IMG/VR virus record: IMGVR_UViG_3300024349_000035
Strand: one strand, 5' to 3'
DNA: 64,000 nucleotides
Origin: a virus
A model generated the notes under the pieces. It did no database searches. It was not told where the DNA came from and was given only the letters and a program-made list of their open reading frames with translations. The position numbers and the translations under genes are program-made. Positions 1 to 52,338 of this stretch are shown here, piece by piece (position 1 is the stretch's first letter; every line of letters starts with the position of its first letter).

Positions 1-135
1 TGCGTGTTCAACAATGTCGCGGTTGGTCAGGTTGTTGATCGCGCGCTGCATCTTCCGCTGCGCCTCGGCTAGATTGCTTGCCTCTACCCGAACCTCAATC
101 TCCAGCGTGACCGTACCGAGCAACATATACTGCAT
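1..135 (-). CDS. hypothetical protein, partial (runs off window start)
   Basis: ATG at 135 with GGAG RBS; open frame MQYMLLGTVTLEIEVRVEASNLAEAQRK... to position 1. Confidence 0.55.
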   Translation of the reverse strand, partial: MQYMLLGTVTLEIEVRVEASNLAEAQRKMQRAINNLTNRDIVEHA

Positions 136-162
136 GAGTAGACTCCTGTTAGATGTGCGAAG

Positions 163-783
163 CTAACCTTGCTGGACTTTGGGCTTGCGTGGGCGGATTG
201 CCGCTGTTGGCCCATACGCCGCCAAGACCTTGACTGATGTCAGGGATACCTTGTACGTGTTGGCGACTTCCTGATACCACGCGGTCTTGGTCACGCCAGC
301 GGGAATGTCAAGCGCATCCCGGCAGATGGCCTCGCGTGTAGGCATGGGGATTTTGAGCATCGATTTTCCTTCGTCACTCTGCCCCAGGATACGTTCGGCC
401 TCCTGCGCGATTGCTTCAACTGCACGCTCCGCTGCTGTATCCAGAGCGACCTTCGCCTGCACTTGCGGCGTATCCCGCAGGACGATCTTGATGTCCTCCT
501 GATACCCGTCTACCAAGCGGTTCGCCTGATCCAGCCAGCCTTGCCAGCGCCGGGTTGTGATCCCGTCCAGGCCAAGTCCCACGACCAGTTCTGCGCGAAG
601 CTGCGCACGCAGGGCGACAGTGTAGCCCAAACTGATCCACTTCTCGTTGTGCGCTGACAGTGACCCGCCCGCGTGGTTCAAGTCCTCGCGCTCTCCCCGT
701 TCCCACGTCGATAAATCCAGCGGAGCCGTGTGAAGGGATAGATGTCCGTTGCCGTTGCTGTGTCCATTACCGTTGTTCTGCAT
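163..783 (-). CDS. hypothetical phage protein, possible C-terminal HTH
   Basis: 206 aa ORF with GGAG RBS; C-terminal helical segment TKTAWYQEVANTYKVSLTSVKVL is HTH-like. Confidence 0.65.
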   Translation of the reverse strand: MQNNGNGHSNGNGHLSLHTAPLDLSTWERGEREDLNHAGGSLSAHNEKWISLGYTVALRAQLRAELVVGLGLDGITTRRWQGWLDQANRLVDGYQEDIKIVLRDTPQVQAKVALDTAAERAVEAIAQEAERILGQSDEGKSMLKIPMPTREAICRDALDIPAGVTKTAWYQEVANTYKVSLTSVKVLAAYGPTAAIRPRKPKVQQG

Positions 784-813
784 GTTACTCTCCTGATAGA
801 TGATATAGAACGT

Positions 814-1047
814 TTACTGTGCCGCGCCTGATGGCAGGCTGGCGTACCACAACACAAACGCCAAGACCAGAGCAGCAATCGTCATGGTCGCGGCGCATCC
901 GACGAACTCTTTGGCTTCATTCCAGCTATCTTCACGCCAGAGGATGATGCCAACCGCCCATATTGCGATATTGATGGTCGGGTAGCCGATGATGATGGCG
1001 TACTTGAGGATGTCCCCGATGATCCGGTTCACGTCTGCCTGTGTCAC
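814..1047 (-). CDS. small membrane protein (2 TM)
   Basis: Probable GTG start at 1047 overlapping the upstream TAG; two hydrophobic stretches. Confidence 0.55.
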   Translation of the reverse strand: MTQADVNRIIGDILKYAIIIGYPTINIAIWAVGIILWREDSWNEAKEFVGCAATMTIAALVLAFVLWYASLPSGAAQ

Positions 1048-1244
1048 TAGTCCTGATCCTTCTGCTTCTTGAGTTCGGCTTTGATCTTGCGCACGAGATC
1101 GCCCGTACTGATCCCGTCCCAAATCAGGGTGAAGTGAAGCTGATCCCCTTCCCACCAGTAGCGCATACGCACACCATCGGGTAGATAATGCAGGATGGCT
1201 TGCTCCAGATACTTCTCGACGTTCTTGCGTTGGGCTTCACTCAT
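1047..1244 (-). CDS. hypothetical protein
   Basis: MSEAQRKNVEKYLEQ...; ATGA overlap with the upstream stop at 1241. Confidence 0.6.
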   Translation of the reverse strand: MSEAQRKNVEKYLEQAILHYLPDGVRMRYWWEGDQLHFTLIWDGISTGDLVRKIKAELKKQKDQD

Positions 1245-1519
1245 GTACGCCGTTGACCCCTGTGTACTGCATTGTCCTGATAGTGGTGACGCATATTCTG
1301 GACGCGCGGCCTGCCCATGAAACCACAGCGCTGACAGGTGAACTCCATCTGACGGTAGCCGACTTCCTGCCGCATGTTGCAGCGTGGACAGGTCACGATC
1401 CATGTGCGCGCCTTACACAAGCGCACGTATCGCACCTGATGGGCCTCACGCTGAAACGCGGCACGTGGGGTAGGTGTGTAATATTGGCGCTGGTGGATGC
1501 CTTTCGGCTTGTCGCTCAT
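1241..1519 (-). CDS. zinc-ribbon protein
   Basis: CPRC...CQRC motif pair. Confidence 0.65.
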   Translation of the reverse strand: MSDKPKGIHQRQYYTPTPRAAFQREAHQVRYVRLCKARTWIVTCPRCNMRQEVGYRQMEFTCQRCGFMGRPRVQNMRHHYQDNAVHRGQRRT

Positions 1520-1647
1520 TGAGAAGGGGTCATCTTTCTGTGTAGCTTCCTGTGGAAGATGGGGGAGCCGGACTAGTATCCCCGGCCCTACGCTTGTTCT
1601 AGAATTGCGCGTGCGTATTGCCTAGCCTTTCCACACTGTCCCCCAAC

Positions 1648-1722
1648 GGTAGATGCCGTGCTATCCCGCTTACACCAGACTGCTTACGCGGCATGGGCCT
1701 CGAACCCAAACCTGCATCTACC
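1648..1722 (-). ncRNA. YrlA/Y-RNA-like circularly permuted tRNA mimic
   Basis: Minus strand reads GGTAGATGC-AGGT-TTGGG TTCGAGG CCCAT-GCCGC GTAA GCAGTC-TG-GTGT AAGCGGGAT AGCAC-G-GCATCTACC: 9-bp terminal stem, T arm, loop-closed imperfect acceptor stem, then D arm. Confidence 0.7.
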
Positions 1723-1727
1723 CAAAG

Positions 1728-1793
1728 CATCCCGGCAGGAATTGAACCTGCGCACTCACCCGCTATATTCATCGGGGGCTTCCCTTCGGGATG
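1728..1793 (-). ncRNA. tRNA-like element lacking a D arm
   Basis: 7-bp acceptor stem CATCCCG/CGGGATG, T arm GCAGG TTCAATT CCTGC, CCCG/CGGG stem with 10-nt loop; no D stem, no encoded CCA. Confidence 0.6.
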
Positions 1794-24801: not shown

Positions 24802-27800
24802 CTAATTATACATGCCATACAGATGTTCCCGCCAGATACGGCGGGAATCTGCATCGACCACTTCGGTTACACGCAGGACGGACAGCCGTGCGTCGTGAGG
24901 CCACAGGAAGCCCAAGACCTCTTCCACGTCCGGCACGTAAGGGGCAGGCTCAGGCTCCGGTTCGGGATCAAGTTCGTGATCGTCCGGTACGACCTCCGGC
25001 TCAGGCTCTACGACAGCTTCCGGTGCAGCTTCCACAGGAAGTTCCGGCGCGATCACTTCCGGCTCAGGCCAGTCCATGACCTCAACCACGATCTCCTGAT
25101 CCTCTTCCTGACCGTTCAAGTCCGTGCGCTGGATGAAGTCGCCGTGAACCTGCGCCAGATCAGCAATGCTCGTCGGCTCGAACTCGAAGTCGCGCACACA
25201 CTGAGCCTCTTCCAGTTCCGACAGCGAGAAGTCCCCACCTTCAAACACGAACCCGGCGACCCATCCGGTCAGCAGGTCGGTGTTGTTGACACGTCCCTGC
25301 ACGTACCAAATCCAGTTCGTTTCGGGGTTGTAGATGCGGTAGAGCGCCGGATTGTTCTCGCCCCGCGCCAAATCTTCCAGCGTCGGCAGCGCCGCCCATT
25401 CGTCATCCGTGAGCAGGCGGTAGCGCCCGTCCTCGTGTTCAGCGGCAGCGAAGGCTTCTTCCACCACCTGATCGACACTCGCCGGGATCAGGGCTGGAGC
25501 GTCCTCCACCCACTCCGCATCTACCGTATCCGGTTCAAGGTCGAAGGTGTCCACACGGCGCACCTTGTCCGTGAAGCCGATCCGGTAATCGTCACGCTCT
25601 TCCAGCAGGTCACGGACGTAATCCAAGAACGGGTTGTCTTCTACCTTGCTCTCAAAGAGCGCTTTGTTGTCGTCGGAGAACTGTGGCAGTTCATCCTTCA
25701 ACACCGCCTTACGGACAACCTGTGTGATGTCATCCTGACCCGCCGACAGAGCCGACAGCGCTTCACCCACATTGCCCATGACGACAGCAGCGGCCTTCAT
25801 CTTCTCAGCCATTGCCAGCGCCGCCAAAGCCTGAATGTGGTTGTCCTTCTGGCTCTGGCTCTTGCGGGGGTCTTCCCCGTATGCCCACGTGTGGATGATG
25901 ACCTTCTTGTTCTGACCAGGACGCACCACACGGCGCATCGCCTGAGCGATCACGAACAGGGAACGATGTGGCACGCCGACCAGATGCACGTGGTTGAACA
26001 TGATCAGGTTCAGACCGGTAGCGATCAGTTCGGGATTGCAAATCAGCACGTTGTAATCCCGGTCAACCGCGTCACGGATCGCCGCTTCGCGTTCATCCCG
26101 ATCACAATCGGCGTAGTCTTCCTTCTCGCACCACGTCTTGATCGTCATGTCGCTCTTGGTGGTCAGGACGAACGGCTTGAGTCCGGCTGCTTTGCACATC
26201 TTGTAGATGCTCTTCGCCGCAGGCCGCTTCTGACCAGATACGAAGATGATTGCCCTGTCGCCCAGCGCTGCGTCCTGTGCTATCCTTGCAGCGACTTCCG
26301 AGGTGAGGCGGGGGGCAGGCCAGTCCGCAGAGAACAAGCGTGCCTTGAGCCACACTTCGGTAGTCTTAACCCGGTGTTCCTCGGCGATCTTGAGATACTT
26401 GTCAGCCTCGTCCGCATTGCCTTCGACCATGTACTTCGCCGCGAGTTTCTCGTACTCTTCGACGCGCTCCCGGTCTTTGGGGTGTATCCACGTTTCATCC
26501 TGATCGGGCGCGAGTATCCAGCCGATTGCCGCCTGAATCCACGCTGACAGCTTGGACATATCACCCTTCACCGCGTCAGATGAAGCGTCCTCACGGATTT
26601 TCTTGAGAACATCCATCTCTGGCTGCACTTCGGGGTCTACCGGAACCCAGTGAAACTCGCTCACGGCAGGCGGCAGTTCGATGTTCAGGTCTGCCAAGTC
26701 CATGAAGGTCGCATACGGCAGCAGCCATTGAACGATGTCCGGCATACAGCCGTTGGCTTCGCGCTTGCTGACATGCTCCACGAACGCCTTGCCGCCGAAG
26801 CCCTTGACCCCGGCCTTGACCTTCGCCTTCTGCATGGTGATGTAGATGTCATTGACACCGTACTCGTCCACGAACTTGCTCACCTGATCGTAGCGGTACA
26901 GGCGACGGAACTCCGGTGACATGCGGTGCAGCAGGTAGAACAGGCCGGAAGCCTTGCCGTTGTAGATCGTCCCGGTCAGGCCGAGCGTCCACTTGCTGTT
27001 CGTCGCCAGCTTGCCCATGATCATGCCCCTAGAACTGTCTCCACTCTTAAAAATTTGAATCTCGTCCGCGATCAGCGCGTAGCGCCGAGCGTAGCGGGCG
27101 GCAATGTATTCCCCGATGCTGGCGCGCGCCGATCCGGTCTTGGCCTCGACCAGTTCGCCCTTCTCGAAGTCGTAGTTGGGCTTGAGGGTGAACCGACGCA
27201 CGTGCTTCCCGGTAGACAGGGCAATGGTTTCTGCCTCAAACTGCTCCATGTTGTCACCGAACCGGGTGAAGCTGAACATGGGCGTGCCGCACGCTTCATC
27301 CTTGCGGGCAGGCTGCACCACTTCCATGCTGATCGCCTGCCACTCGATATTCTTCCCGGTGCTGAGGTACTTCGTACCGGGACGGTACTCGACCATGCGC
27401 GGCGACCCATCATCATTGAACAGCGGTTCGCCCGTCTTCACGTCGATGTCCTGTACGAACTCGACGTTGGCAGGCACGCGCACTTCCACAGGAAGCACTT
27501 CCATCATGACCCGCCCCTCTTCGTCGTACTCACGCCTGGTCTGCACGGTGTTTTGACAGAACAGCTTCTGGCGGTTGGCGGGCCGCTTCTCGTAGTGGAC
27601 GAACGGATCGTCAATGATGTCGCCCTTGCTGGTTTTGATGATGTGGATGCCGCCGCAGGTCGGGCAGGTCATCACCGGTTCTTCCGCCAGCGCCCGCGAC
27701 ATGACTTCGCGCTTGTGTTCCAGCTTCGGCACAAAGCTGTACCGCCAGGGCGCACCCAACTTGGCGTGAGTCTCCGACAGGATCAGGATACCCAACCCCG

Positions 27801-41372: not shown

Positions 41373-41417
41373 GGTGTATACCCTCCACTCGTGAACACAT
41401 GAATTAGTGTTCCCACC

Positions 41418-41457
41418 TATGCAAGAAGCCTGTCATATATGACAGGCTTCTTGCATA
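41418..41457. repeat. perfect 40-bp palindrome
   Basis: TATGCAAGAAGCCTGTCATA|TATGACAGGCTTCTTGCATA, no spacer, intergenic. Confidence 0.9.
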
Positions 41458-41479
41458 ACGCACTGTGCTTGAGGGCTAT

Positions 41480-41830
41480 TTAGAGCCGCACAGTCGGCTT
41501 GACACTGGCACGCCAGAATGTGACCCAACCGTTCTTGGTAGGCTTGTCATCGAACCACGTCGGCTCTGTCCAATCGCCCATGATTGGCAGGTCTAGATTG
41601 AGGCGCTTGAGCGTGCCTGGATAACAGCAAATGATGTGATCGCATAGCCCCTGTGCCTGAATATTTCGCACAAGGTTAGGCATCTGGAACGCACCATTCG
41701 CAAGGCCATGTGCCATGAGATAGCGCACACCTTTGTTGTCAGTGAATATGGCATAGCCATACGTATCGAAGTCCGACAACAGATCGTCAAATATCCGCTT
41801 CGACATACGGATTGAAAACTTATCAGCCAT
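41480..41830 (-). CDS. hypothetical protein
   Basis: Start MADKFSI; HG...ICCYPG. Confidence 0.6.
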   Translation of the reverse strand: MADKFSIRMSKRIFDDLLSDFDTYGYAIFTDNKGVRYLMAHGLANGAFQMPNLVRNIQAQGLCDHIICCYPGTLKRLNLDLPIMGDWTEPTWFDDKPTKNGWVTFWRASVKPTVRL

Positions 41831-41899
41831 TCCCCTACCCTCCACTCATGCGAACCCACCTGTGCAGTACAAGACTGCACAACGCTCTGAGCCTAAGGG

Positions 41900-42061
41900 C
41901 TATTTCACGTCGCTCAGACGACGATAGACGCTGTGCTTATCGCACAGCGCCACGATGACCTCATCGGCCTTGATGTTCTTCGCATCAGCAATAGCCAGTT
42001 GCTTCAAGCTGTAGCGACGGACACTAATCGACACGCCATTACGAACGATGAGCGAGAACAT
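41900..42061 (-). CDS. small hypothetical protein (53 aa, below the track cutoff)
   Basis: MFSLIVRNGVSISVRRYSLKQLAIADAKNIKADEVIVALCDKHSVYRRLSDVK after a GGAGG RBS. Confidence 0.55.
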   Translation of the reverse strand: MFSLIVRNGVSISVRRYSLKQLAIADAKNIKADEVIVALCDKHSVYRRLSDVK

Positions 42062-42802: not shown

Positions 42803-42977
42803 GGCGTGGCTGGCTGACGGACAGGGCAGCACGGTCACGGTGGGGAAGTCGGTATACATGGCGCTCCGCGACAATGACGGGGTGTACTTCATTCGCAAGG
42901 GTGAGAGGGGCGACGTGTTCAAAGACTCTTACGGCAGCACGTCATGGAACTTCAACCGGGACAAGAGTGATCAGTAA
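42753..42977 (+). CDS. hypothetical protein
   Basis: TAATG overlap with the TerL start. Confidence 0.55.
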   Translation: MSGRIVYGSEDFEGIYRAWLADGQGSTVTVGKSVYMALRDNDGVYFIRKGERGDVFKDSYGSTSWNFNRDKSDQ

Positions 42978-45172
42978 TGCCTGTTAATCGTCCCCGCACG
43001 CTGGACACCGAGGAGAACGTACAGGGCCAGCTAATCACCGATGAAGATTTGCAGATATTTCAGGCAGGCAAGACCGACCTGAATTATCTGACAGATTTCT
43101 ACCTGCGTGGGCCGCGCTCCGGCACGTTCTGGCGCAGATTCCCCGCGCCACCTGATCCTGAGCGCGAGGCAGTCTGGAAAGCGCTGTACAAGGAATGGCG
43201 GGCGCAGGGCAAACCCGATCCGGTATTTGCCTACACCGGGGTCGTCTACAACATCCAGTGGGACGATGATGGAGCGCCGGTGTTCTGGCATCATCACGGC
43301 TGGTTGGCAATGCCCTGGCAGAAGCAGGCGTACCACGATCCGCGCCCCGAGCAGACGATTGTGGGCGGTATGGGGTGTCTGGATTGGAACGCCCGCATCT
43401 GGAATGAAGATACGCAGCAATATGAGGCAATCGGCGCTCTGTGTGAAGCGCAACGAGCGCCGACTGTGTTAGCGTGGAATGGGCAGGCGTTAGTACCTGC
43501 GAAGGCAACCGTACCCTTCAAGAAAGGGCGCGATCATTTGTACACCGTGACTACCGCTTCCGGCAGGCGGATCACGGCGACGGGTCATCACCGCTTCCTG
43601 ACTCCGCAGGGGTACAAGATGCTGTCTGACCTTGCTTGCGGCGATTGGCTGCTTGGATGCGACACTGTAGTTATGAGATCGGGGATTTCGCCAGATCAGA
43701 TCGTGTCTATTAGCTATGTGGGCGAACGCGACTACTACGACCTGCATGTGCCGATCTACGAGAACTACGTCGCAGAAGGGTTGGTGTCTCACAATTCGGG
43801 CAAGACGGCATACATAGCCGTATCACTAGCTTGTATGGCAATGACTATTCCGCACTTTCGCGGGTTCAACTTCGCTCCGCAGATGGTACAGGCGCAGGAA
43901 GTGTATTCGTACATCAAGAATCATTTCATGGACACGCCGTTTTGGGAACGGTTCGTGGTGGCAAGTCCGCTGCGGCCTTATCCGCGCATCACGGTCAAGA
44001 ACTCATTTGTCGGGGAGTCCACCATTGAAATCTACTCCATCGAGAAGGACACCGAGAAGATCAGAACCATTGAAGGCGACGTGGCCTTTGTCGATCAGGG
44101 CGAGAAGTTCGACAACCTGGACGACGTGGTGCGCGACATTGGTTCACGTTTGCGCGGGCAGGTGGCAAACCGTCCCCGCGTCGGCAGATTGTGTATCGTG
44201 GCAAACGCAGGTGACAACCCGCAACTCTGGACTCGTTACGATCAGGGTGAGTACCAGCCTAAATACTTCATGTCGCTCAACCCGTCGTCCTACGACAACA
44301 TCTATCTGACTGATGTAGACCGGGACAACTTGAAGCGACGTGTCTCGTCCGACGCGAGCGCCGACGAGATCGACCAGTGGATGCACGGTAGAAGGCCGCT
44401 CGGCAAGGGCGAACACTTCCCCGGCTATCAGGTTAAGGCGGCTACCGATGAAGGGCTTGACCGGATCATGATCGAACGCATTGAAGCAGGCGATCCCGGC
44501 TATGTCCGGCTGGAAAGCCCGCCGCTGCATATCTACCGTTGGGAGATGCCGCCTGATTTTGCGGGCAAGCGGGTGTACTGCACGATTGGCGATCCCGGTC
44601 AGGGCAATCCACCAGATCGCAATTCGGCTCCGATCATGGTGTGGGACATTACCGACTTCCCCAAAGCGCCTGCGGTCATGCGGGCGTTCTACTGGGTCGC
44701 CGGGAATGGAAGCATCATGCCGTTCTTTCAGGAGATGCTCCGGCTCAACGACATCTACCAGACGAAGGACAGATGCGCCTTTGACTCTACCGGGACGCAG
44801 AAGGGGCAGAACGAACTCGCCTTCGCCAACTTCGGCATTATGGCAGAGCCGATGGACATGGCGGTGAACGGCAAGATGTTCGCCATCAACTCGCTCAAGA
44901 TGTTTCTCGGACGGGGGCTGATCAAGTTCCCGTACATTGCCCATCTCGGCAACCAGCTAACCAATTACCGGATACCGGACAACAAGATCAGGCAGGATTT
45001 GGTCATGTGCATTGCCATGTCTGCCAGCTACATCCGGCGTTACTTCTACTACGACGCGGTGGCGGCTGACGAGGAAGAGCAGGCCCGCGTCCGGTCATCC
45101 GTCTTCACGACAGATCGTTATCACCGTAATCCGTATGACAGATATTACAGGGGGTCAGGTAGACCACGATGA
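42977..45172 (+). CDS. terL: terminase large subunit (intein-containing)
   Basis: WQ Q-motif, Walker A GGMG|SGKT split by an intein, Walker B AFVDQG, coupling motif ANA, nuclease IGDPG...DST...DLVMC; directly upstream of the portal. Confidence 0.9.
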   Translation: MPVNRPRTLDTEENVQGQLITDEDLQIFQAGKTDLNYLTDFYLRGPRSGTFWRRFPAPPDPEREAVWKALYKEWRAQGKPDPVFAYTGVVYNIQWDDDGAPVFWHHHGWLAMPWQKQAYHDPRPEQTIVGGMGCLDWNARIWNEDTQQYEAIGALCEAQRAPTVLAWNGQALVPAKATVPFKKGRDHLYTVTTASGRRITATGHHRFLTPQGYKMLSDLACGDWLLGCDTVVMRSGISPDQIVSISYVGERDYYDLHVPIYENYVAEGLVSHNSGKTAYIAVSLACMAMTIPHFRGFNFAPQMVQAQEVYSYIKNHFMDTPFWERFVVASPLRPYPRITVKNSFVGESTIEIYSIEKDTEKIRTIEGDVAFVDQGEKFDNLDDVVRDIGSRLRGQVANRPRVGRLCIVANAGDNPQLWTRYDQGEYQPKYFMSLNPSSYDNIYLTDVDRDNLKRRVSSDASADEIDQWMHGRRPLGKGEHFPGYQVKAATDEGLDRIMIERIEAGDPGYVRLESPPLHIYRWEMPPDFAGKRVYCTIGDPGQGNPPDRNSAPIMVWDITDFPKAPAVMRAFYWVAGNGSIMPFFQEMLRLNDIYQTKDRCAFDSTGTQKGQNELAFANFGIMAEPMDMAVNGKMFAINSLKMFLGRGLIKFPYIAHLGNQLTNYRIPDNKIRQDLVMCIAMSASYIRRYFYYDAVAADEEEQARVRSSVFTTDRYHRNPYDRYYRGSGRPR
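43376..43795 (+). mobile_element. 140-aa mini-intein (no endonuclease) in the TerL Walker A motif
   Basis: Starts CLDWNARI, block B TGHHRFLT, block F YYDLHVPIYENYVAEG, ends SHN followed by Ser +1. Confidence 0.92.
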
Positions 45173-51041: not shown

Positions 51042-51573
51042 CGAGAGCATCCTGAACCTGATTGTTGACTACGCGAACGAACAACTTCTGTACAACCTGC
51101 AATATCTGGTTGAACAGAGCGACGAAACGCGGGGCGGACTGGTTCGAGCCGGGTTGCTACAGGATGACCCGCTCAAGAACGGCATCAACATCCTGACACA
51201 TATTGGCGACCCCGAAGACGAACTGGGGTGGCGACACACCATTGTCCGTGCGGATACCCTGCCGCATCACTCACCCCCGCCCTACATGCTCGGCGGCGGC
51301 GAGATGTGGCACAGGAAGTTCACGACAGAACTGATGCAGTTCTTCAAGACATCGGTGAAACGCGCACGCGCACGCGAACTCGCCAGCGTCATTCTGTCCC
51401 GAACCGAACACGCGATCCGCACGATGAAACTGGGGGTCGGGCCAGATAGCTTTGGCGAATTTGCCTTCAAAGCCTTCGTCCATTCGAGCATCAACACCGA
51501 AGCAGGTGGGGATGGGCAATTTATATGGCGCGGGCGCATTTGGTGGATTTGCTTGACAGAAATAAACTACTGA
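51034..51573 (+). CDS. head closure or tail terminator protein (putative)
   Basis: Position between the adaptor and tail tube genes. Confidence 0.5.
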   Translation: MADESILNLIVDYANEQLLYNLQYLVEQSDETRGGLVRAGLLQDDPLKNGINILTHIGDPEDELGWRHTIVRADTLPHHSPPPYMLGGGEMWHRKFTTELMQFFKTSVKRARARELASVILSRTEHAIRTMKLGVGPDSFGEFAFKAFVHSSINTEAGGDGQFIWRGRIWWICLTEINY

Positions 51574-52154
51574 ATTTGTAATCGATATATTATCTCATTG
51601 AGGCGTTCAATCTCAGATAATGCCTCTTGGTACTCCTGATAGTAGTCGCCGTGTCCTGGCCCATGTTCTTTTGCAGTAGTCAGCAGTCTCAAGTTTTCAG
51701 GACGGTTATCATGACGAACGCCGTTGATATGGTGAACGATCTCATGGGATTTCAATGGTCTACCAAGTTTGCGTGCCATTATCAGGCGATGCTCGGTGAT
51801 GTATTTTGCGCTCTTGTGACTGCTGCGTTTTACCATACTTGCGTACTTCTGTTGCTCTTCAGGCGACAGATGATCAATGTGAACCTGAATGTATCCGCTG
51901 TGTTTGCGGGTTACACCACCTGTCCATTTAACCGAACGCTTACCGCCCTGCGACATACCCTTGCAGTTGTTACACATACCTGTACAGGTATCTTTCAGGG
52001 CGTAGTTGTACTGGACACCGCGCTTGTACCCACAGCCGCCGCATGTGATTGGTACAAAACGAACGCGGCCTCCCGGCTTCTTGACGAAGTAGATTTCGTC
52101 CCAATGGAAGACCGATCCCAAAGCGTTCTTCTCTGGCTTGCCAGTGTTGTTCAT
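51567..52154 (-). CDS. free-standing HNH homing endonuclease
   Basis: EHRLIMARKLGRPL...VHHINGVRHDNRPENL HNH_3 motif; N-terminal CGGC...CNNC. Confidence 0.9.
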   Translation of the reverse strand: MNNTGKPEKNALGSVFHWDEIYFVKKPGGRVRFVPITCGGCGYKRGVQYNYALKDTCTGMCNNCKGMSQGGKRSVKWTGGVTRKHSGYIQVHIDHLSPEEQQKYASMVKRSSHKSAKYITEHRLIMARKLGRPLKSHEIVHHINGVRHDNRPENLRLLTTAKEHGPGHGDYYQEYQEALSEIERLNEIIYRLQIQ

Positions 52155-52191
52155 CTGGAATAGCACCTTTCTTTCTGTTCTATAACTGCTA

Positions 52192-52220
52192 ATTATACCG
52201 AAGCTCCTTGCACGGCGCAA
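52192..52220 (-). promoter_or_regulatory. promoter for the HNH gene
   Basis: TTGCGC-17 nt-TATAAT. Confidence 0.65.
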
Positions 52221-52338
52221 GCAGATTCGGTACATGAAGCAAAACGCGCTCACCCTCTCGCTGCAAACAGGCTGAGTGTGTCAATCGTAAATCTGTGGGC
52301 GACTGGACAGCCCATCTGAGTGATCGAGGAATACCGAA

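Follow-up and report, generated by a model that had tools for sequence, protein, structure and literature searches.

YrlA RNAs have been defined by a tRNA-like domain whose modules run in the order variable loop (V), T arm, acceptor-like stem and D arm, by a Ro60-binding stem that is formed from the RNA ends and carries the motif GNCGAA(N0-1)G, and by a position no more than 4 kb from a Ro60 gene on the same strand (PMC4201824). [quoted passage not shown] Tandem-tRNA junctions, in which the T arm of one gene precedes the D arm of the next, are known false positives of YrlA searches (PMC4201824). In Cyanidioschyzon and some archaea, circularly permuted tRNA genes encode the 3' half upstream of the 5' half; they have an anticodon loop and a 7-bp acceptor stem, and bulge-helix-bulge splicing converts their products into real tRNAs (PMC3978253).

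We analyzed an element on the minus strand, at positions 1648-1722 of a 64,000-nt stretch of viral DNA (“the window”; coordinates refer to it unless stated otherwise). The window comprises bases 2855-66854 of a 79,856-bp IMG/VR provirus record (IMGVR_UViG_3300024349_000035) that originates from metagenomes of bioreactors and activated sludge. Its source contig is 121.9 kb long, and the record has a completeness of about 80%. A large serine recombinase ORF, the integrase (record positions 1-1752, minus strand), is truncated by the left edge of the record. The predicted prophage boundary therefore cuts the integrase gene, and the true prophage extends further.

A permuted tRNA-like module

Read on the minus strand, where RNA position equals 1723 minus the window coordinate, the element runs from 1722 to 1648 as GGUAGAUGC-AGGU-UUGGG-UUCGAGG-CCCAU-GCCGC-GUAA-GCAGU-C-UG-GUGU-AAGCGGGAUA-GCAC-G-GCAUCUACC. 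A first-pass annotation had proposed that the 5' and 3' ends pair in a perfect 9-bp stem at the anticodon-stem position of a tRNA, and this was confirmed on the minus strand. RNA 1-9 (GGUAGAUGC, 1714-1722) stands at the position of the 3' strand of the anticodon stem, with pair probabilities of 0.98-1.0. Its partner, RNA 67-75 (GCAUCUACC), follows directly on G26 (RNA G66), and the two together occupy 1648-1657; this arm was likewise assigned from the sequence and from pair probabilities.

Inside the closing helix, a 4-nt variable loop, AGGU (RNA 10-13, 1710-1713), supplies A44, G45, G46 and U48 in the geometry that the descriptor used below demands. It is followed by the T arm UUGGG-UUCGAGG-CCCAU (RNA 14-30, 1693-1709), whose stem has pair probabilities of 0.99-1.0. 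The T stem consists of four pairs, with G53-C61 in place and none at 49:65, where there is a U.U mismatch. The acceptor-like hairpin GCCGC-GUAA-GCAGU (RNA 31-44), with an unpaired C45, spans 1678-1692. It is weak (pair probabilities 0-0.13): the series G.U, C-G, C.A mismatch, G-C and C-G leaves about four pairs under a GUAA loop of the GNRA type. A U8-G9 linker (RNA U46-G47, 1676-1677) leads into the D arm GUGU-AAGCGGGAUA-GCAC (RNA 48-65, 1658-1675), which matches the descriptor and has an ensemble probability of 0.001. Every piece of the order first described (AGGT, T arm, GTAA-capped acceptor-like stem, U8-G9, D arm) was thus found in its place.

This order of V, T, closed acceptor-like stem and D, with the ends in the anticodon stem, agrees with the tRNA-like module of YrlA RNAs (PMC4201824; 10.1101/312249), as the annotation had stated. 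By inspection of the sequence, ten of ten classical tRNA tertiary-contact positions are correctly occupied (U8-A14, A15-U48, G18/G19, U54-A58, G53-C61, G26-A44, G45, G46, G9 and Y11-R24). The nucleotides of a tRNA core are present, then, in an element whose D arm is thermodynamically disfavored. We conclude that the element is a real, tRNA-derived, circularly permuted, acceptor-sealed module of the YrlA type.

Perfect 9-bp inverted repeats with a spacer of 40-80 nt occur 16 times in the genome, compared to 16.8 times in Markov simulations. By itself, the closing helix is therefore no evidence; what counts is its placement. We scanned 336 kb with a strict descriptor consisting of a T arm, a spacer, U8 and a D arm (A..GG..A) in the swapped order. 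In the phage genome there was a single match, the element, closed by nine Watson-Crick pairs. In the tRNA array of a control phage the descriptor matched four tandem-tRNA junctions, which were closed by 0-3 pairs. With a looser descriptor, the swapped order was joined to a strong closing helix only in the element and in an RNA of a related phage (G006, described below). A separate loose scan gave one tandem-tRNA junction, in G011, that closed with seven pairs including one G.U. The combination of modules is rare, and its geometry is non-random.

Computed folding gave a more complex picture. In the minimum free energy (MFE) fold of the element (-33.1 kcal/mol, z = -4.0), the 9-bp stem is preserved together with the T hairpin, but the D arm is not: RNA 35-66 pairs into a long hairpin instead. 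The tRNA-like fold scores -22.2 kcal/mol, with a D-stem pair probability of 0.001. The gap between the two folds is 10.9 kcal/mol, compared to a median of 2.15 and a maximum of 10.7 for 22 control phage tRNAs; among these genuine tRNAs, a tRNA-Gly and a tRNA-Ala have gaps of 7.5-8 kcal/mol. The domain folded independently when it was placed inside 291 nt of its context.

Other identities were considered and rejected. Neither the tRNA model (RF00005) nor ARAGORN detects the element, and its acceptor strands match at 3 of 7 positions, which speaks against a tRNA or a permuted tRNA gene. A tandem-tRNA junction is excluded since there are no tRNA halves outside the 9-bp helix and the control junctions of the strict scan close with 0-3 pairs. 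The ORFs over the element have no family and do not support a coding role; no U run follows the helix, as an intrinsic terminator would require; the integrase lies at the edge of the record and the geometry is wrong for an att site; and ARAGORN found no permuted or two-piece tmRNA.

The tRNA-like array and its variants

Aberrant tRNA-like units form an array on the minus strand (1648-2480), which ends with the element. The tRNA model matches four weak units in the whole record (38.1, 31.7, 27.0 and 19.5 bits), and all four are in this array. The acceptor and T arms of the units are good, but the anticodon regions are missing, expanded or otherwise odd; the units neighboring the element keep 6-7 of 7 acceptor pairs and near-perfect T stems. 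The immediately preceding unit (1725-1799, minus) places its discriminator 3-4 nt before the first base of the element. A promoter-like site, TTGACA-17-TAATAT with a TG (2494-2522, minus), points into the array and scores 10/12 plus the TG. We found no terminator-like site between the element and the next ORF, at 1519-1241.

ARAGORN calls just one unit of the array, a tRNA-Asn (GTT) at 2146-2214 on the minus strand. It scores 27.0 bits, which is under the Rfam tRNA threshold of 29, and its acceptor and T arm are near-copies of those of two adjacent non-decoding units. This gene may not encode a working tRNA.

No family could be assigned to the ORFs overlapping the array or the element, and the ORFs neighboring the element matched no Pfam family. 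The downstream genes encode a 92-aa zinc-ribbon protein and a 206-aa protein, both of them orphans; three other contigs carry these genes, all 100% identical. A copy of the hairpin motif CTTCC-ACA-GGAAG, which the first-pass annotation listed as genome-wide, is located at 1546-1558, in the interval that separates the element from the beginning of the 92-aa ORF. The sequence ACAGCAA does not occur close to the array; its nearest copy, at 2863, falls within an ORF. Farther along the window, two Pistol ribozymes are encoded on the minus strand at 41411-41499 and 41854-41923 (52.2 and 67.3 bits; Rfam threshold 34.5), about 350 nt apart and immediately upstream of the terminase region. The 731-aa ORF in the terminase position (42977-45172, plus) contains an intein splicing domain (Pfam Intein_splicing, 45.6 bits), and a separate HNH endonuclease ORF is found at 51567-52253.

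To the extent that copies of this phage were recovered, they did not vary: other assemblies of it are identical, and mapped contigs show no variation within the element. A distant blastn search of 1500-2700 against phage GenBank records gave no match. A pattern search of IMG/VR anchored on the T loop and D loop found no copy of the element, and the same anchors in JGI metagenomes gave 16 matches, all of them chance occurrences inside coding sequence. No RNA sequencing run was listed as holding the element.

Variants about 92-96% identical to the array region occur in two metatranscriptome assemblies. One RNA-library contig (X12), with about 92% identity, spans 1725-1899. Its divergence begins exactly at 1725, and the 26 bases beyond this point are therefore unlike the element; at its other end it diverges inside a T arm, at 1899. 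In a metatranscriptome contig (X14), the unit with a long anticodon arm (1880-1968) is replaced, 99 nt giving way to 58 other nt. Such replacement and divergence indicate that the array is modular and in flux, and exchange of its units seems to take place at the T-arm and acceptor sequences that they share. Because these contigs come from RNA libraries, they suggest that related arrays are expressed. An integrase relative (L011) has no tRNA array nearby.

Aberrant tRNA-like units also occur in other viral contigs (L037:896-971; L033:7760-7822; L035, about 3490-3300, minus; L036:9800-9850), where they share the acceptor and T arm (..GGGUUCGA.UCCC.CCAGCGC) with three units of the array. The unit in L037 has an anticodon loop of 8-9 nt and adjoins small zinc-ribbon ORFs, as in the window; that in L036 is scarcely more than an acceptor/T minihelix. 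The recurrence of the acceptor and T arm of array members in L037 argues that odd tRNA-like units of this sort are kept.

The element itself is not significantly similar to the other array units (best score 25, compared to 24 as the highest among shuffles). Among tRNAs, a tRNA-Glu(CTC) of a related phage (G005) matches its two halves best, with a summed score of 45 compared to a shuffle maximum of 40, which is a hint of tRNA ancestry.

Ro60 and YrlA-like RNAs in related phages

Relatives of the phage were identified through an alignment of portal homologs (41-48% identity), which yielded 67 IMG/VR records. Single-protein searches with the terminase or the portal returned nothing; only the portal alignment reached these relatives. 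The long relatives possess canonical arrays of 11-26 tRNA genes that score 50-71 bits each. Since the arrays of the relatives are canonical, the aberrant array of the present record is a derived state. No homolog of the element was found among the 68 related records.

Two of the relatives, G006 and G010, encode Ro60. In G006 (IMGVR_UViG_3300046671_000011; portal 45% identical), the protein (L145:845-2434, minus) scores 128 bits for TROVE and 170 bits for vWA_Ro60. It is 42-45% identical to Ro-like proteins of actinobacteriophages, and Ro60 representatives are at most 52% identical to it. DUF2828 was not found in 20 related records at E<=0.01. Ro60 together with Y-like RNAs, first described in actinobacteriophages, is therefore also carried by some members of this other lineage.

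G006 also encodes a YrlA-like RNA of 130 nt (25046-25175; L138:7047-7176, minus), located directly after a tRNA-Asn in its array and about 10 kb from the Ro60 gene. Its parts are a lower stem of 9 bp (AAGACGAGC/GUUCGUCUU) and an upper stem of 8 bp, then a variable hairpin, a T arm, a loop-closed acceptor-like stem of 8 bp, a UG linker and the D arm GUGU-AGUGGAA-GCAU. Its MFE fold reproduces this layout except for the D arm, which pairs differently. With the Rfam YrlA model (RF02553, gathering threshold 69 bits) it scores just 12.1 bits. A tandem-tRNA junction in a control phage scores 30 bits. The G006 RNA is a genuine, textbook YrlA-like RNA, and the Rfam YrlA model has low sensitivity within this phage lineage.

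G010 has two RNAs directly upstream of its Ro60 gene (L142:1244-1312 and 1461-1582, at about 54.2-54.6 kb). The RNA with the motif GCCGAAG scores 37.4 bits against the nematode Y-RNA family (sbRNA, stem-bulge), for which the threshold is 38. The second RNA is tRNA-like, with its modules in the normal order; its anticodon arm contains an insert of 63 nt that resembles a loop-capped Ro-binding helix.

The G006 RNA is like the element in its location, in a tRNA or tRNA-like array of the same portal lineage, and in the order of its modules. Its upper stem has 8 bp compared to 9 bp in the element, 13 of 17 T-arm bases are identical, and so is the junction UG-GUGU-A. On the other hand, the 9-bp lower stem, variable hairpin, 8-bp acceptor-like stem and Ro60 gene of G006 all lack an equivalent in the element. 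Outside the T arm, the shared motif, a 7-mer, was matched in 143 of 2000 shuffles and is not significant. A single-sequence model of the G006 RNA scored 5.7 bits on the element, all of it contributed by the T arm (match at 1693-1713); over the 68 related records it found just the G006 RNA itself, and in the window just T arms. That the element is the counterpart of the G006 RNA is therefore not statistically shown. The 8-bp upper stem of G006 would explain the long closing helix of the element without invoking chance.

The first-pass annotation had reported no GNCGAA-type Ro-binding motif near the stem, and indeed there is none in 1580-1800 (220 nt). No pairing extends the helix beyond the 9-bp stem, which means that the Ro60-binding lower stem is absent. 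The annotation had likewise seen no Ro60/TROVE gene in the window, and this extends to the whole 79.9-kb record, which also lacks genes for vWA_Ro60, DUF2828 (at E<=1), VWA_2 and RtcB; TROVE and vWA_Ro60 were not detected there even when stop codons were read through.

A cmsearch with the Rfam YrlA model, suggested at first pass as a check on the YrlA assignment, left the element unmatched at E<=10, even in a 131-nt search, and the Y_RNA and sbRNA models gave no match at this cutoff either. As the genuine G006 RNA receives only about 12 bits, this negative result with the Rfam model is weak evidence. The proposal that the RNA co-opts or titrates Ro60, PNPase or an RNA repair complex found no support: the GNCGAA motif, the lower stem and the partner genes are absent from the record, the Rfam YrlA model does not match, and no homolog conserving the element was found in IMG/VR, the JGI metagenomes or the 68 related records. 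On present evidence, the element is not a demonstrable member of the YrlA family and is not a Ro60 partner.

Possible roles and comparison with known RNAs

The explanation we favor, with a probability of roughly 40%, is that the element is a free, Ro60-independent mimic of the tRNA elbow, probably descended from a YrlA-like RNA of its lineage. The array and promoter context suggests that minus-strand transcription driven by the promoter would run through a non-decoding tRNA-like array and include the element as its final unit, and that 3'-processing of the preceding unit would free its 5' end. Its ancestor would have been a YrlA-like RNA in the arrays of Ro60-encoding relatives, from which the Ro60-binding lower stem and the variable arm were presumably lost. 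If functional, the RNA would act without Ro60: it would be stable and non-chargeable, and it would have no anticodon loop for a nuclease to cut. The elbow formed by its T loop and D loop would bind or titrate a host factor that recognizes tRNA elbows.

A bolder version of this proposal, which we regard as unlikely, is that the element is a YrlA-type elbow decoy without its handle, standing in an array of differently “broken” mimics and engaging a host tRNA-binding factor. YrlA RNAs are thought to tether a tRNA-elbow-binding effector to Ro60. The target of such a decoy could be a tRNA-targeting defense nuclease or the effector of the host's Ro60-YrlA particle. If this were true, a phage that has no Ro60 would supply the tRNA-like module by itself, as a minimal bait with which to find the Ro60-YrlA effector, and it would suggest that phages exploit the tRNA-shaped part separately. 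Along with its anticodon-less or altered neighbors, the element could form a decoy set against tRNA-directed host functions.

Nearly as likely as a free elbow mimic is that the element is a non-functional relic, left by reshuffling of the array and going back either to a YrlA-like gene or to tRNA genes that were rearranged; it may be transcribed but would do nothing specific. Decay of this kind would be consistent with the contrast between canonical arrays of 11-26 tRNAs in relatives and aberrant units of 19-38 bits in this record, with variants that replace or lack units (99 nt by 58 nt in X14; the divergence of X12 at 1725), and with the absence of the Ro60 gene and the Ro60-binding stem. 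The weak acceptor-like hairpin, the U.U mismatch in the T stem, the gap of 10.9 kcal/mol to the other fold and the failure to find a conserved copy in the databases searched point the same way. Against a relic speak the perfect closing helix, the intact D stem and the correct tertiary nucleotides. Only the acceptor part is altered, and even there the hairpin has a GNRA cap; moreover, the neighboring units keep near-perfect acceptor and T stems and a strong promoter. If the element is a mere relic, it is still an example of the reshuffling of tRNA arrays and Y-RNA genes, in a phage lineage from sludge bioreactors that has been poorly sampled.

It is rather improbable that the element acts in cis, as a clamped end structure marking the boundary between the array and the downstream operon that runs from the 92-aa zinc-ribbon ORF to the integrase. 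Such a structure could block 3' exonucleases on the array side or protect the 5' end of the mRNA after processing. Its position as the last unit, starting 3-4 nt past the preceding discriminator, would suit this role, as would the lack of a terminator before the ORF at 1519 and the independent folding in 291 nt. A plain hairpin would suffice for this purpose, however, and the full set of tRNA core nucleotides would be left unexplained.

We consider it less probable again that the RNA is not tRNA-shaped at all and instead forms a three-way junction of the 9-bp stem, an extended T hairpin and the 35-66 hairpin, so that its resemblance to tRNA reflects ancestry only. The folding energies favor this structure (-33.1 compared to -22.2 kcal/mol, D-stem probability 0.001), and the gap exceeds that of all 22 control tRNAs. 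On the other hand, energy models omit tertiary contacts and modifications, the tRNA-Gly and tRNA-Ala controls also show substantial gaps, and ten correctly placed tertiary nucleotides would not be explained by the alternative fold.

Finally, a true Y RNA bound by a host Ro60, or by one encoded outside the 79.9-kb record, is very improbable: the YrlA topology, the Ro60 genes and Y-like RNAs of G006 and G010, the incompleteness of a record (about 80%) that is cut in the integrase gene and the insensitivity of the Rfam YrlA model in this phage group (12 bits for the G006 RNA) would all allow for it, but the element has no GNCGAA(N)G, no stem of the CGAGCCG/UUGYUCG type found in G006 and G010 and no pairing beyond the 9-bp helix, its 5' flank is occupied by the preceding unit, no Y_RNA, sbRNA or YrlA model matches it at E<=10, and neither TROVE nor vWA_Ro60 appears even with stops read through.

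Compared with circularly permuted tRNA genes, our putative elbow mimic shares the placement of the 3' half before the 5' half; it differs in having no anticodon loop and acceptor strands that, aligned in the tRNA register, match at only 3 of 7 positions. Compared with YrlA RNAs, it lacks GNCGAA(N)G, the lower stem, a Ro60 gene within 4 kb or anywhere in the record, and a match to the Rfam model. Its D stem differs from the YrlA consensus GCUC/GAGC, and its acceptor-like stem has just about four pairs. These comparisons rest on a single sequence. The likeness to YrlA lies in the same order of modules, in the presence of the tertiary nucleotides and in the location among tRNA-type genes of a phage, and the modules are similar in size to their counterparts in Salmonella YrlA, which has a T stem-loop of 17 nt, an acceptor-like stem-loop of 15 nt and a linker of 2 nt. 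The element is therefore of a known kind, in an unusual variant.
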